From an uncultured Candidatus Saccharibacteria bacterium (GTDB lineage Bacteria; Patescibacteriota; Doudnabacteria; UBA920): DNA of 64,000 nt. The stretch spans positions 40,174 to 104,173 of the forward strand of contig CAZDIP010000001.1 of the NCBI GenBank assembly GCA_964505635.1, given 5' to 3'. A model generated the notes under the pieces. The model did no database searches. It was given only the letters and a program-made list of their open reading frames with translations, and was not told the DNA's origin. Below are positions 16,948 through 58,759 of this stretch, one piece after another. The translations under genes were made by a program, and so were the position numbers. How positions within the stretch are numbered: the stretch's first letter is position 1; the number at the start of each line of letters is the position of its first letter.

Positions 16948-17445
16948 ATGACAAAGACTGAAGTTGTTTTTATGGCGTGTTTTTGGGTGCTCGGCCTTGC
17001 GGCCTTGAGTACCGAGTGGGGAGGGAGTGCGGAAATGTTCCTTCTGGCTTCGTTCTTGGCTGGCGCGATGTTTGAGATGCTGGGGGAAAATATGCCGCGG
17101 CCCCCGTACTGGAATTTCGTGGGCAGAGGAGCTTTGCGGACTTGGGGGTTTGTTTTTGTCTGCATTCTCGTAATTGTTTTTATGGGTGCGGCAGTGAACG
17201 ACAGGCCTGCGGCCACAGATTTTGTGCGGCAAGCGCTGGGACTCGGAGGTCTGCTGCCCGCCTTCGCGCTGGCTGGCATCGCGTTTTGCTTAGGTCTCGT
17301 AGGGATGGCGGCGGAGGTTCCGAGAAGGATACTTCAGTTAGTGCGAAATCGGTGGCTGGACATACTTTGTTTTGTCTTTGTGTTGACAGCCTTGTACACC
17401 ATCATTCGCGGCGTGTTGTTTTGGCCAGAGCCCGGGCGGCCTTAG
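16948..17445 (+). CDS. Hypothetical GC-rich 4-TM membrane protein (possible foreign origin)
   Basis: MTKTEVVFMACFWVLGLAAL... The longest ORF starts at 16894. An SD-like AAAGGGGGG precedes the ATG at 16948. Composition is markedly GC-rich against an AT-rich genome. Confidence 0.4.
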   Translation: MTKTEVVFMACFWVLGLAALSTEWGGSAEMFLLASFLAGAMFEMLGENMPRPPYWNFVGRGALRTWGFVFVCILVIVFMGAAVNDRPAATDFVRQALGLGGLLPAFALAGIAFCLGLVGMAAEVPRRILQLVRNRWLDILCFVFVLTALYTIIRGVLFWPEPGRP

Positions 17446-41803: not shown

Positions 41804-41989
41804 ATGAACGAAGCAATAAAAATAAAACAAAATATTTTAAAACAGCTCCAGGGTTTATGCGCGCACTGTGTCACTAATTCAGTTAAGCCTCACAATTGTC
41901 CCGTTAAGCAGATTTCCTTGCGCATTCAGTCCCTTCGCGGCGTGCCTTTGGTGGTCAACAGCCAGTTTAAAGGCATGCTTTGGACATAA
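41804..41989 (+). CDS. Small Cys/His-containing hypothetical protein (61 aa)
   Basis: CAHC...HNCP could bind metal. Weak. Confidence 0.25.
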   Translation: MNEAIKIKQNILKQLQGLCAHCVTNSVKPHNCPVKQISLRIQSLRGVPLVVNSQFKGMLWT

Positions 41990-42039
41990 AAAGAGGGCTG
42001 CCTTCGTTCCTGGTGGGAAACTTGGGCAGCCCTGAGGGA

Positions 42040-42335
42040 AGCGTTCCATTGGGCAAATATTATTCCAACCCGCTTTCGCGCGGCTCAGTATGGCTGCTCC
42101 ATAGAGCGACAATCCGTCATGCGACGGGAAAGTCTTGCCATAAGGCCAGTTTTTGAAAGCGGGTCGCTCGCGGGAGCAAGCTTATAAGCTTAATGAGAAC
42201 GTTATGGATCCCCCTTTTATTGGCGGGTTGCCACTGCTTGTTAGGCAGCTCTCTACGGCAACCCGCCCTCTCGTCGGAGTACATATATTTTATTCTAAGG
42301 TGATTTTTTAGTCAAACAAATTAAAACCCCCTAAA
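42040..42335 (+). ncRNA. GC-rich structured segment with an RNase P RNA CR-I-like motif, a possible 5' part of an RNase P RNA gene
   Basis: CGTCATGCGACG hairpin, then GGGAAAGTC-TTG-CCATAAGGCCAG at 42126-42149, compared with the consensus P3-GGAAAGUCCGGGCUCCAUAGGGCAG. Also GGAGCAAG. A terminator hairpin follows at 42323-42352. Confidence 0.3.
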
Positions 42336-42352
42336 TTTTAGGGGGTTTTAAG
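42323..42352. terminator. Hairpin AAAACCCCCTAAA-TTT-TAGGGGGTTTT. It is the terminator for the minus-strand GIY-YIG gene and possibly for the plus-strand RNA.
   Basis: The stop codon of the GIY-YIG gene lies inside the hairpin. T-runs on both sides. Confidence 0.55.
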
Positions 42353-42580
42353 TAACTTTTGTTTTTTTGTTTTAGGCCATTTTTTTATTTCAGCCTCACG
42401 TTTTAAGGCCTTTATTTTGGTTTTGAATTTTTCAAAGTAGATTATTTTTCCGCCGCCGCGGCTTTTTACATATTTAGACCCCTTGCCTTGGTTATGAGCC
42501 AGTTCCCGTTTTTTAAGGTCATTGGTAATGCCGGCATAAAGGGACTTGTCTTTGCATAAAAAAAGGTAAAAGTAGTACAT
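42338..42580 (-). CDS. GIY-YIG nuclease family protein (YhbQ/UPF0213-like), 80 aa
   Basis: MYYFYLFLCKDKSLYAGITNDLKKRELAHNQGKGSKYVKSRGG. The ORF-track N-terminal extension (42581-42853, TTG start) is GC-rich and not protein-like, so it was trimmed. Confidence 0.75.
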   Translation of the reverse strand: MYYFYLFLCKDKSLYAGITNDLKKRELAHNQGKGSKYVKSRGGGKIIYFEKFKTKIKALKREAEIKKWPKTKKQKLLKTP

Positions 42581-42905
42581 ACAGGTATTATAACAATTTT
42601 TAAATTCAGTATTGTTTAAAATAGGAAGGCGCGCGTTTGCTTTGTGGGGCAAAACGCGCGCCGGAATGTGGCATACATCGCACGGGCATGTGCCCTTGTT
42701 TTTGTTACGACCGGGGAGTTTACCCGTGTAATGTATACCTTGGAGGAGACTATGAATCCTCTTTATAAAAAATGCGGGTTTGCGGCCAAGACAGGCTCTT
42801 GATTCCCCTTGCAAAGGAACTTGGTAGAAACCGCAAACCCGCTTCTCTCTCAAACGAACAGGAATAAAATGACTTTAGCATAGTTTTTGTAAATGGTAAA
42901 GAAGT
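42581..42905. ncRNA. GC-rich structured segment with RNase P-like motifs. Orientation unresolved.
   Basis: Read on the minus strand, CACGGGTAAACTCCCCGG (rc of 42709-42728) resembles the P15/L15 motif CACGGUAAACUCCACCCGG. Read on the plus strand, ACAGGAATAAAATGACTTTAGC (about 42857-42878) resembles the P4 3' strand ACAGAA..GGCUUA and can pair with GAAAGTC at 42126. Confidence 0.25.
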
Positions 42906-55433: not shown

Positions 55434-57347
55434 CTATTTATTTTTTTCCACAGGTAGATTCAACTTAATATGCAACTCCTTTAGTTGTTTTTCTTCTACA
55501 GTGCCTGGGGCTGACATCATTACGTCTTCGGCCGAACCGTTTTTAGGAAAAGCGATTACTTCACGGATGTTTGGCTCGTTTTCAAGAAGCATTAAAAGCC
55601 TGTCTATGCCAGGAGCAAAACCACCATGTGGGGGAGCGCCATATTCAAATGCGCGAATCATAGCTCCAAATTTTTCATCTACAGTTTCTTTACTGTATCC
55701 GACTAATTCAAATGCTTTATACATTATTTCCGGATTATAGTTTCTAATTGCCCCACTGGAGAGCTCTAGCCCATTAGCAATAATGTCGTATTGGTAGGCG
55801 CGAATGGTAAGGGGGTCCTGGTTGTTTAAAGCATCTAGCCCACCTTGCGGCATTGAAAATGGATTATGCATAAAGTCGAGTTTTCCTTCTTTGTTAAGCT
55901 CATACATAGGAAAGTCGGTAATCCACGCCCAGGCTACAATAGTAGGATCCTTAAGTCCAAATATGTCGCCCATTTTGTCTCTTAGCTTTCCTAATACTTT
56001 GTTTACGAGCGTTTTATCATCCGCGCCAAAGAAAATAATGTCACCGGATTGGGCTTTAAGTTTGTCAATTAGCGCTTTCTTTTCTGCGTCAGAAAATTTG
56101 TTTACTATTGTGCCTGATAAATCACTAATATCGACTGTTTCTAAAGAATGGCCGCTTGATGACATTCCTTTTCCAGCAAATAAGTGCTCTTTTTTTCCAC
56201 ATATTACATATGGTAATCCACCAGCACCTTCTTTTTTTACCATTTCTGTTAATTCATCAATCTGGCTTCGGGTAAGTTTGGCGCCTCCTTGCACGCAAAT
56301 GGCTTTTACAGAGCCGCTATTTTCTATAGCATTGTAAAAAATTTTAAATTCGGTTCCTCTAAAAATATCTGTTAAATCCACCAGCTTCATTTCAAACCTT
56401 AAGTCTGGTCTGTCAGAACCATATTCCTCTAAAGCCTGTAAATAGGGGATTCGTGGAAATGGTTTTTGCATGCATTTTTTGCCTGCAAATTTTTCTGTTA
56501 GTTCTATAAATAAAGGTTCTAGTTCCTGGAAAACTGTTTCGTCACGGTCTGCAAAACTAATTTCAAGGTCTAACTGATAAAATTCGCCAGGAGATCTGTC
56601 GGCTCTCGGGTCTTCGTCACGGAAACATGGGGCTATTTGAAAATATTTTGGAACTCCGCCAACCATTAATAATTGTTTAAATTGCTGGGGAGCTTGTGGA
56701 AGCGCGTAAAATTTACCCGGATGTAAACGGGACGGCACTAAAAAGTCGCGAGCGCCTTCAGGCGAGCTGGAAGTTAGAATTGGAGTGTTTATTTCTATAA
56801 ATCCTTTGTCATCCATCCAGTCGCGGATGTATTTTATCATTTTATGCCTCTTAAGAAGCATGCGCTGCATTTTTTCACGTCGTAAATCTAAGAAACGGTA
56901 TTTAAGGCGAATATCCTCGCCAATGCTTGCTTCTTCACCGTGGCCGTGGGCTATGGGAAAGGGAAGGGGCTTGGAAGAGTTTAAAAGTTGTAAGTTGTAA
57001 GTTGTAAGTTCTACGTTGCCGGTGGGTAAGTTAGGATTTTTTGTGGAATCGCTTCGTTCAACAACTTGGCCGGTGACCGTAATTACAAATTCATCCCTGC
57101 ATTTATCGGCAGCGCTAAAAGCCTCAGCCTGATCGGGGTGGATTGCTAGTTGGACTATGCCGGTGTGGTCGCGGAGGTCAATAAAAATCACGCCGCCATG
57201 GTCGCGTCGTGAATTAACCCAGCCGGACAAACTGACGGTTTGACCAATGCTTTGGGGTGTATGGATTGCTAGTGTTCTTTGCATATGTTTGATGCTGTAT
57301 TTCCCGGTCAAATAATATAAATTTGACGGGATAAATCCGATAGACAA
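55434..57347 (-). CDS. aspS: Aspartate--tRNA ligase
   Basis: OB-fold N-terminus, class II motifs FRDE, GGG.R and the QLDLE-type core. 637 aa. Confidence 0.9.
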
Positions 57348-57429
57348 TCGGCACAGCAGTTATTAATTGTGTTTGAATTTTAACACTTTTTGCCACTTTT
57401 GCCAAGGAGATGTTAAACTTTGTTTATGA

Positions 57430-57918
57430 ACGACTTTTGTCGTTTACGTGTAGCTTTTGCGGCAGTAACGTCGTTGGGGCGACCAGCTTTGCAAACGGTA
57501 ACGCATGTTGCCACGCCACTCTCGGTTCGCCTTCAAAACAACGGTATTGTTGGGTTCCGGATACCCGGAACCCTTACGCAGGTAATTCCTTTTAACCCCG
57601 CCCTGGGGCGGAACAGTTCAACTTCTACAAGGAGAGGGAAATGTCAGATTTTCGCAAGCTGTTGATTAGCCTGTTGCAGGGCTTTTGAACAAAGGAGGAA
57701 GGTCAAGGGACTTTGGTAATGTTCTTCGCATCATGAACTAGTAAGTGAAAACCAATTTTCGCATGCGTAGTCTGCGGAGGTTGGAATTCAGACTCTAGTT
57801 TTCGGCCCGCCGCCCCAAGCCGGCCTACCACGCGAGCGATACGCTGCGATGTTTGAATTACAGTATACGCAACTTCGTAGCGTCCCCCCGACTATCTTGG
57901 GTAAGTCGGGGTTTTTAT
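57430..57918 (+). ncRNA. Unassigned structured GC-rich noncoding region ending in an intrinsic terminator (57886-57918)
   Basis: No credible ORF. Many stable hairpins, for example GGTTCCGG-ATAC-CCGGAACC, CCGCC-CTG-GGCGG and the terminator CCCCGAC...GTCGGGG followed by TTTTT. GC is well above the flanks. Confidence 0.35.
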
Positions 57919-58180
57919 TGTGCCTTTTTGGCTACAAAAAATAAATCTGATACACTAAGCTACAGAAGAAGCCTATATACCACTACATAAAACTATAAAA
58001 ATTAAGAAACAAACTTTTGCTGGATTTTGTAGTTTTATGTAGATTTGCATAATTAGTAATTCTGTAGAAATAAAATGACATTAAAAAAATAGTTTTAGAT
58101 TTAGAAACCCATCCATCTTCGCCAAGGCTTCGATGGACTTAGGCGCTATACAAAATATAAAATTAATTTTGTAACATAAA

Positions 58181-58759
58181 ATGTTGAAAAAAATAGTTTT
58201 AGATCTTGAAACCCAGAAGTCTTTTCAGGAAGTCGGGGGGCGGGGAAAAAACAATGTTTTAAAAATCAGCGTTTGTGGAATTTATGATTTTAGCACAGAT
58301 AAGTATTCTATTTATGAAGAATATGAAATTCCCAAACTTAGTTCGCTTTTGCAAACCGCGGATCAAATAATCGGTTTTAACATTAAAGACTTTGACTTTG
58401 AAGTACTGCAGCCATATTTGAATTTTCAGGTTTCCCAAACCCCGTATTTGGATTTGCTAGAGGAAATAGAAAAAACTTTGGGGCACAGAATTAAACTGGA
58501 AGATGTGGCTCAGGGAACTTTAGGCAAGGGTAAAAGCGGGACAGGCCTGGAAGCGATTATGTATTATAAAAACGGGCGCATGGATTTGCTAAAAAAGTAC
58601 TGCCTGGACGATGTTAAGGTTACCAAGCAAATTTACGATTACGCCTTAAAAAATCAAAAAGTGCTTTACAGGGATTTTTTTAAGACCAAAGAAATTGCTT
58701 TAAAAATCAGCGAGCCCAAAGCCCGAGTGGGGGTATTGCACCAGGCAGCGCTTTTTTAG
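58181..58759 (+). CDS. DEDD-family 3'-5' exonuclease (DnaQ-like fold)
   Basis: Exo I VLDLETQ, Exo II IGFNIKDFDFEVL and Exo III YCLDDVKVT. Confidence 0.6.
   Translation: MLKKIVLDLETQKSFQEVGGRGKNNVLKISVCGIYDFSTDKYSIYEEYEIPKLSSLLQTADQIIGFNIKDFDFEVLQPYLNFQVSQTPYLDLLEEIEKTLGHRIKLEDVAQGTLGKGKSGTGLEAIMYYKNGRMDLLKKYCLDDVKVTKQIYDYALKNQKVLYRDFFKTKEIALKISEPKARVGVLHQAALF

Follow-up and report, generated by a model that had tools for sequence, protein, structure and literature searches.

Dual-function small RNAs such as SgrS/SgrT, RNAIII/hld and SR1/SR1P, and the messenger RNAs (mRNAs) of type I toxins of the hok, aapA1, ldr and tisB classes, are the described systems closest to the locus reported here, a GC-rich, hairpin-dense cassette of ~490 nt at 57427-57918 (+ strand) between aspS and an exonuclease gene of an uncultured Candidatus Saccharibacteria bacterium. 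Positions are those of the window, the whole 64-kb stretch of DNA that was analysed (contig CAZDIP010000001.1). The cassette shares with the dual-function small RNAs a structured RNA of a few hundred nucleotides, a predicted promoter and terminator of its own, a very short open reading frame (ORF) preceded by a Shine-Dalgarno (SD) sequence and, to judge from the related L010/L163 cassette, RNA parts at least as constrained as the peptide. It differs from them in that the window RNA has no sequence or Rfam relationship, its ORF of 15 codons looks truncated, and its conservation is confined to the species. With the type I toxin mRNAs it has in common hydrophobic peptides of 27-28 amino acids (aa) in two relatives, a long structured mRNA whose SD-like tracts can pair with internal anti-SD tracts, and a place in a variable intergenic slot where tandem and decayed copies occur. 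Unlike these mRNAs, it showed no antisense promoter or antitoxin RNA (in a consensus scan of 57200-58300 the sole promoter-like site on the minus strand was that of aspS), its 15-aa peptide is too short for a membrane span, its peptides fall in no Pfam or NCBIfam toxin family (PADLOC was not searched), and other cassette types of the slot have ORFs for Asn/Lys-rich hydrophilic or RGRPV peptides. By analogy, its mode of action would seem nearest to that of these two kinds of RNA, but it has the defining features of neither.

To our knowledge, almost nothing is known about regulatory RNAs and micro-proteins in the Patescibacteria (Candidate Phyla Radiation, CPR), and a full-text literature search found no described CPR small RNA. 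Screens of intergenic regions by length and GC content, as described in Breaker-lab papers (PMC6429828, PMC8632094, PMC11109978), find GC-rich intergenic orphan structured RNA candidates. The cassette has exactly the profile that these screens pick out, a long intergenic region far richer in GC than the AT-rich genome around it, predicted to be structured and devoid of coding signal; it differs in that motif status needs several covarying representatives, and the cassette body has no alignable one. The locus is new as an orphan, but its general kind is known, namely small RNA or micro-ORF loci specific to a bacterial lineage.

We read the cassette, with about even confidence, as an independently transcribed, fast-evolving structured RNA of a class defined by position, with a minimal or vestigial micro-ORF and SD-like tracts that can be masked internally. 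In this model, a sigma-70-type promoter, recognised by consensus, would initiate an RNA of ~490 nt, which is predicted thermodynamically to fold into a series of stable hairpins, significantly so in comparison to shuffles, and which would stop at its own intrinsic terminator ahead of the spacer preceding the exonuclease gene. The cassette would belong to a GC-rich, strongly folding, fast-evolving class occupying the aspS/exonuclease slot of a Patescibacteria clade, and would most likely act as RNA, either as a regulatory or as a dual-function small RNA. Its internal UUCCUUUU/CUUCU anti-SD may mask the SD-like tracts. Two relatives retain an intact gene for a hydrophobic peptide of 27-28 aa, of which the 15-codon ORF may be either a minimal form or a relic that has become shorter.

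The cassette fills the left two-thirds of an 887-nt intergenic gap between aspS (55434-57293, - strand), whose homologues are named aspartate--tRNA ligase and carry PF01336/PF00152/PF02938, and an RNase_H_2/PolB-exonuclease-like gene of 192 aa (58181-58759, + strand) identified by family search. GC content is 0.49-0.51 across 57400-57900, 0.26-0.27 in the spacer at 57900-58200 and 0.396 in the whole window. Against dinucleotide shuffles, the minimum free energy (MFE) of the plus strand gave a z of -2.9, and of -3.4 for 57427-57918; the minus strand gave -2.2, and four coding controls from the same window, including one GC-rich membrane-protein ORF, ranged from -1.3 to +0.8. Composition, hairpins and fold z thus all agree with an earlier note on this DNA, made from its letters alone, which described a GC-rich, hairpin-dense stretch of ~490 nt between the two genes, and the perfect hairpins that it named are present at 57552-57573 and 57598-57611.

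A promoter-like site, TTGCCA-18 nt-TAAACT with TG upstream of the -10 (57390-57419, + strand; 9/12 consensus matches plus TG), places the predicted RNA start near 57427, right at an 8-bp 5' terminal hairpin of the MFE structure, UGAACGAC-UUUU-GUCGUUUA (57427-57446). Proceeding along the plus strand, the fold contains a long imperfect stem at 57462-57550 (GGGGCGA/UCGCCUU and others), capped by GGUAAC-GCAU-GUUGCC at 57497-57512, and then a perfect 9-bp hairpin, GGGTTCCGG-ATAC-CCGGAACCC (57552-57573; GGGUUCCGG-AUAC-CCGGAACCC as RNA), which is evident from both sequence and fold. A 10-mer within the capped stem, TTGCCACGCC (57507-57516), recurs in the cassette of one relative (L001), possibly by chance. 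The anti-SD-like pyrimidine tract UUCCUUUU (57586-57593) complements the AAAGGA found in the SD-like tracts further downstream, and is followed by the hairpin CCGCC-CUGG-GGCGG (57598-57611), again seen in sequence and fold; the MFE structure pairs 57587-57592 with 57705-57710, and 57622-57626 with 57630-57634. Further along lie a long hairpin, GAACUAG/CUAGUUU around the 12-bp CCAAUUUUCGCA/UGCGGAGGUUGG (57735-57801), which is retained in the centroid, and, just upstream of the predicted terminator, the hairpin GCUGCGA...UCGUAGC (57843-57881). The terminator-like hairpin itself, CCCCGACU(AUC-UUG-GGU)AAGUCGGGG followed by UUUUUAUU, occupies 57886-57918 in the fold; its stem arms at 57886-57911 read CCCCGACT...AGTCGGGG in DNA, with TTTTTATT after them, and CCCCGACU...AGUCGGGG in RNA, with UUUUUAUU after them.

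Loci of relatives, Patescibacteria metagenome-assembled genomes labelled variously Saccharibacteria or Doudnabacteria, were collected through AspRS scans of genomes and exonuclease scans of metagenomes (160 loci) and through protein-based look-ups (13 more), for a total of 173. The divergent aspS/exonuclease pair is kept in 59 entries, window included, with a slot of 88-3116 nt between the two genes. The longer slots contain an insert, oriented like the exonuclease gene, that has a promoter of its own and a hairpin plus T-run end, and a conserved TTGTCT/TTGTGC-17-TATACT promoter lies directly 3' of the relatives' cassette terminators. The inserts are mostly unalignable with each other or with the window, while the flanking proteins are 62-84% identical and synteny is retained; for AspRS, no relative exceeded 82% identity among the matches listed. 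Searches of the RNA against the 173 loci with blastn, nhmmer and Smith-Waterman found just L128, L161 and, weakly, L099. On conservation, to which the earlier note had tied its proposal, the outcome is thus divided: there is no sequence conservation in relatives with flanking proteins 62-84% identical, but the last ~64 nt are kept in L161 and 105 nt in L128.

L161 is a relative with a 99% identical exonuclease, assembled in Logan runs SRR11567540 and SRR16481182, whose contigs cover 57855 onward only. Its sequence is 97% identical to window 57855-57957 and its terminator is identical; in the adjacent stem (57843-57849/57875-57881), the changes C57876U and U57878C turn a G-C into a G-U pair and a G-U into a G-C pair, leaving pairing intact. 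When L161 1-290 (SRR11567540) was compared with window 57855-58180, the DNA from ~57960 to the exonuclease start was unrelated and lacked the upstream-ORF-like (uORF-like) copy described below. This replacement indicates recent recombination in the slot, and the differing L161 spacer together with the unalignable inserts points to the slot being a hot spot of replacement. Judged by sequence, the window element is an orphan at the level of the species rather than a conserved housekeeping RNA.

Minimal slots hold just a conserved hairpin, CCGATAGACAATCGG, beside aspS and a TTTTGCCAAAT box, and in these relatives a TTGCCA promoter directly precedes the exonuclease gene. In the window, the aspS promoter-like site (57405-57377, - strand) stands back-to-back with that of the cassette (57390-57419, + strand). 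Conserved in the window (57396-57405) and in related loci, the box gives TTGCCA when read on the + strand and TTGGCA when read on the - strand. It is apparently a common -35 region of the divergent aspS and exonuclease/cassette promoters, to go by its letters, and in our own reading the box would, on its two strands, supply the -35 elements of both genes in minimal slots.

The earlier note saw no plausible ORF in the cassette. This stands for the long ORFs: those of 61 and 81 aa had no Pfam match, and the six-frame translation (stop-to-stop translations of at least 23 residues, concatenated to 704 aa) had no match at E<=10 among 5.8 billion proteins. Overlooked, however, was an SD-preceded ORF of 15 codons at 57641-57688. 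It appears in the ORF list as the micro-ORF MSDFRKLLISLLQGF, running from an ATG at 57641 to a TGA at 57688, and with the SD-like AAGGAGAGGG before it the unit spans 57629-57688 (+ strand). A second SD-like tract, AAAGGAGGAAGG, with a decayed second ORF start, ATGTTCTTCGCATCATGA, follows at 57691-57737 (+ strand) and was recognised by alignment to L128: the decayed start aligns with the intact ATGGCAGATTTTCGC... ORF of that relative (alignment z 4.3), the window copy being out of frame (ATGTTCTTCGC). In all, L128 aligns to window 57625-57729, ~105 nt (Smith-Waterman z 4.3), with the common order SD-ATG-xCA-GAT-xTT-CGC, a hairpin of differing sequence, and AACAARGGAGGARGG. The weak match in L099 consists of GGAAATGTCA...AAGCTG, with an in-frame gap of 9 nt.

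The window ORF shares M[AS]DFR[KR]xL with MADFRRALFALAVTGLVLATNGIAAGCL of L128 and MADFRKYLYAVAAIAVAGVSVYTASAN of L114. SD-preceded M[AS]DFR[KR] starts occur three times in 1.07 Mb, every one of them in the aspS/exonuclease slot and on the cassette strand. The L128 and L114 peptides, 27-28 aa long, have a charged N-terminus followed by a transmembrane-like hydrophobic stretch, in comparison to the 15 aa of the window peptide, too few to cross a membrane. Codon usage differs among the three homologues (GAT/GAC, CGC/AGA, TTG/CTT/CTC), which argues for conservation at the peptide level. None of the slot micro-peptides matched a Pfam or NCBIfam family, toxins included, PADLOC not being searched. 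Small membrane-protein genes also occur in other slots (76 aa in L128, 103 aa in L102 and 63 aa in L018).

Features of the class were sought across the slots. Ten other cassettes all fold better than shuffles (z -2.4 to -7.2), and a further 23 GC-rich cores have a median z of -2.7, 61% of them lying below -2. In 42 slots, counted after removal of duplicate sequences, the cassette strand has 96 SD-like hexamers against 50 for the opposite strand (shuffles 33 +/- 7), 31 SD plus ATG combinations against 14 (shuffles 16.5 +/- 4), and 36 terminator-like ends, a hairpin plus T-run, against 12. The SD-like AAAGGAGG is the sole GC-containing 8-mer common within cassette bodies, present in 10/37 non-redundant slots (shuffle maximum 6), and it often precedes a very short ORF. 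An Asn/Lys-rich hydrophilic ORF of 28-34 aa is conserved in L009, L010 and L163, and L007, L082 and L167 have in common an ORF of 22-25 aa with RGRPV. A comparison of L010 with L163 shows 3-nt indels that leave the ORF open; even so, no part varies more than the ORF, and the flanking non-coding RNA is ~95% identical. The greater conservation of the non-coding parts suggests that the RNA body is more constrained.

The commonest cassette type among the relatives, Family A, comprises members of 250-430 nt in the same slot (L003/L094, L008, L009, L010, L012/L100, L082/L083, L092, L098, L123, L163/L165 and L167). Each has a GC-rich stem of variable sequence, a near-invariant GCAAUCAUAA within 0-3 nt, and then a CCUUCC(AG)-like tract; the upstream part carries AAGGAGG and a short ORF, and fold z ranges from -2.4 to -7.2. 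Across 11 relatives, with arms picked by eye and loops replaced by GAAA, the stem pairs in 77/77 cells and has both-sided changes at 7/7 pairs. Rfam assigned no family to the Family A members among L001-L015. The MAFFT alignment of ten Family A cassettes was too poor for RNAalifold or a covariance model. Family A is probably an undescribed structured RNA family. The window cassette resembles it in slot, strand, own promoter, an SD-like sequence (AAGGAGG in Family A) with a short ORF, GC-rich hairpins, a pyrimidine tract (CCUUCC-like in Family A), a terminator before the exonuclease promoter and negative fold z; it differs in that there is no alignable sequence and in that its pyrimidine tract lies upstream of the SD-like tracts, whereas that of Family A lies downstream. 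Motif and hairpin scans found no hairpin plus GCAAUCAUAA in 57427-57918, the hairpin-plus-motif regex being too permissive to serve beyond showing this absence.

No known RNA family accounts for the cassette. At the gathering threshold, Rfam 15 returned four tRNA hits in the whole window and nothing else, and tRNAs alone in 15 related loci (L001-L015); at E<=10, both strands of 57250-58250 gave AT-rich microRNA-like and terminator look-alikes, none of them in the GC-rich body. ARAGORN found three tRNAs and no transfer-messenger RNA (tmRNA) in the window, and no tmRNA in 22 loci either. The Infernal scan of both strands against Rfam that the earlier note had proposed thus matched no family in the cassette, and its exclusion of tmRNA, RNase P and signal recognition particle (SRP) RNA was borne out at E<=10. 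A tmRNA has a tRNA-like 5'/3' domain (acceptor stem, T-arm GGUUCGAnUCC, 3' CCA context) and a tag frame without SD or AUG; here ARAGORN and the Rfam tmRNA models (E<=10) were empty, no T-arm motif is visible, and the ORF has an SD and an AUG. In RNase P RNA of type A or B (models RF00010/RF00011), CR-I GAGGAAAGUCCGGGC and CR-V ACAGAAnCCGGCUUA form P4; the cassette contains GGAGGAAGGUC without a partner strand, had no Rfam match at E<=10 and is unconserved in relatives. Domain IV of SRP RNA is a GNRA-loop hairpin with conserved symmetric and asymmetric loops, and neither an Rfam match at E<=10 nor a domain IV-like motif (AGGUCAGGUCCGGAAGGAAGCAGC-like) was found in the sequence.

Of the identities that had been left standing, 6S-like RNA and a riboswitch-type leader found no support. 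6S RNA is a rod-like hairpin of ~180-200 nt with a large central bubble and conserved synteny and structure; Rfam gave no signal at E<=10, and the predicted fold is a 490-nt multi-branch structure with no such rod. A riboswitch or cis-leader likewise gave no Rfam signal at E<=10, a 262-nt AT-rich spacer with a promoter-like site separates the cassette from the exonuclease gene, and in relatives the homologous gene has an unrelated upstream element or none. The remaining suggestion, an uncharacterised CPR non-coding RNA, agrees with all results obtained.

Several observations weigh against an independently transcribed structured RNA. The cassette is missing from some relatives, with slots of 88-142 nt, which makes the element dispensable. 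The long-range closing helix of the MFE structure is missing from the centroid, which retains the local hairpins. Promoter and terminator are predictions, from consensus and fold respectively. For the terminator claimed in the earlier note, the fold and the analogous hairpin plus T-run ends of the relatives' cassettes speak in favour, but a simple consensus scanner, with a loop limit of 8 against the 10-nt loop inside the outer stem, did not call the 3' hairpin, so that the terminator is read from the fold. The two L161 stem changes are transitions, which are often pairing-neutral by chance, and the 5' arm lies outside the L161 contigs; the RNA body has no alignable homologue in which covariation could be assessed. 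Finally, L128 and L114, the relatives with intact MADFR... ORFs, fold no better than shuffles (z -0.4 and -0.5), so that a cassette of the window type may be chiefly a small-peptide gene, of which the window copy has decayed.

This last point leads to the reading, possible if rather doubtful, that the cassette is a decaying small-peptide locus, perhaps type I toxin-like, which once encoded one or two short hydrophobic peptides (cf. L128, L114) and whose hairpins are a now functionless remnant of translational control. The truncated window ORF (15 aa vs 27-28 aa), the lost frame of the second copy (ATGTTCTTCGC vs ATGGCAGATTTTCGC), the small membrane-protein genes in other slots (L128, L102, L018) and the fast slot turnover, even in L161, fit such a history; perfect hairpins of 8-9 bp and a z of -3.4, however, are unexpected under neutral decay, and the window copy folds better than its intact relatives. 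The L161 terminator is identical and both substitutions in the adjacent stem retain pairing, the consensus scan found no antisense promoter-like site within the region, and the peptides have no toxin or other family in Pfam/NCBIfam. An unlikely extension of the RNA reading is that the slot hosts an undescribed, rapidly diversifying class of dual-function RNAs (SD, micro-ORF and folded body) exchanged by interstrain recombination, with the RNA bodies, not the peptides, carrying a common function. The window RNA would then be one type and the hairpin plus GCAAUCAUAA Family A another, with ribosome- or RNase-directed regulation, or addiction or competition in these episymbionts, as examples of what they might do.

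The place and strand of the cassette, upstream of the exonuclease gene, would suit a long cis-leader or attenuator of that gene, with conditional read-through of the terminator, perhaps via translation of the micro-ORF; we hold this to be improbable. SD, micro-ORF, alternative pairings and terminator do resemble leader-peptide attenuators, and in minimal-slot relatives a TTGCCA promoter drives the exonuclease gene directly, but the spacer (262 nt, 26% GC) holds promoter-like sites, inverted repeats and a uORF-like repeat, the relatives have the conserved TTGTCT-17-TATACT promoter after each cassette terminator, the micro-ORFs are unconserved between cassette types and have no common codon bias, and no Rfam leader scored in the target region. 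We regard as very improbable a trans-acting antisense regulator of aspS, in which 57713-57731 would pair with the start-codon region and modulate translation. The segment is complementary in 16/19 nt to aspS from its AUG through the next 16 nt, possibly by chance (window z 2.4 in an ungapped complementarity test), and divergently encoded pairs of small RNA and target are known in bacteria; yet by our own estimate ~0.05-0.2 chance matches are expected per 1 kb, cassettes of other relatives, tested against the aspS beside them, show no such complementarity (L105 z 2.6, all others noise), and homology to L128 makes a decayed ORF start the better explanation of the segment. Antisense pairing as a class trait was also considered and set aside, complementarity to the 5' region of aspS or the exonuclease gene not being common to the cassettes, and unconstrained duplexfold against all gene starts was uninformative on antisense targets. 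The chance that the cassette is a divergent tmRNA, RNase P, 6S or SRP RNA beyond the reach of the models is close to negligible. Divergent RNAs occur in CPR genomes, the size range overlaps tmRNA and RNase P, and GGAGGAAGGUC weakly resembles the CR-I motif of RNase P; against this, Rfam was empty at E<=10 on both strands, ARAGORN found no tmRNA, and the sequence contains no tRNA-like 5'/3' pairing, T-arm or ACAGAA.CCGGCUUA partner motif. Conservation would be expected where flanking proteins are 80% identical, and the slot content there is unrelated or absent, so that a conserved housekeeping RNA is effectively refuted.

If the RNA is transcribed, the slot would be a defined, syntenic site with fast turnover of structured RNAs and tiny ORFs among close relatives, and a natural system for the origin and decay of small RNAs and micro-ORFs in reduced genomes. 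The window element alone, as a species-restricted orphan, settles no open question; the class-level phenomenon is of more interest.

The surroundings of the cassette are housekeeping genes, with ScpB, ScpA, a YbaK-like editing domain and aspS on one side and the exonuclease, Lgt and an HtrA-like protease on the other. A mobile element (a miniature inverted-repeat transposable element, an insertion sequence remnant, or phage or plasmid DNA) was considered and rejected on these neighbours and on the lack of terminal repeats, further copies and similarity to mobile DNA: no convincing terminal repeats were found at the cassette and no second copy in the 64-kb window, phage and plasmid collections gave no match, and two exact cassette patterns were absent from viral contigs.

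In the AT-rich spacer of 262 nt (26% GC) that separates the cassette terminator from the exonuclease gene, the portion at 57930-58075 has repeated CTACA/TGTAG motifs, with similar repeats in L001 and L123, and an 18-nt inverted repeat, CTACATAAAACTATAAAA/TTTTGTAGTTTTATGTAG (57983-58000/58025-58042, 94% complementary), and may be an operator region of the exonuclease gene. The first ~12 codons of this gene (MLKKIVLDLET...) are repeated upstream as the uORF-like copy (29 nt, 93% identical, 104 nt apart); copy region and gene start lie at 58075-58143 and 58181-58215 in the window and occur also in L001, L009, L011, L089, L092, L096, L105 and L123. L011 has two upstream copies, three with the gene's own start. 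A conserved hairpin follows the copy, ccatcttcgccaaggcttcgatgg in the window and ...CCTTCGCCAAGGCTACGGCGG... in relatives; measured against the HPSFAKATAD consensus, the copy in the window carries a frameshift, so that the hairpin may be the conserved part. On the other side of the cassette, the hairpin CCGATAGACAATCGG (variants CCGATAAACAGTCGG) at 57343-57357 (- strand) lies ~50-65 nt upstream of the aspS start, in most related loci too, and is conserved where the rest of the relatives' intergenic sequence is unalignable; this hairpin may serve aspS as a leader or operator element.

Elsewhere in the window, a second GC-rich non-coding island (41985-42295), between a 61-aa ORF and the gene at 42338-42853, has a fold z of -5.9 on the plus and -7.0 on the minus strand, nearly alike MFE and centroid structures, and a hairpin plus U-run end on the minus strand. 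At E<=1, Rfam matched only the neighbouring terminator there. This island is a stronger orphan structured-RNA candidate than 57427-57918. The ORF at 16949-17445, with a GC content of ~55-60% in surroundings of 40%, is flanked by terminator-like hairpins and encodes a 165-aa multi-pass hydrophobic protein, which may be an acquired or lineage-specific membrane protein. Directly upstream of tRNA-Gly (1028-1098), a weak Rfam tRNA match at 957-1021 (38 bits, 65 nt), not called by ARAGORN, may be a degenerate or unusual tRNA.

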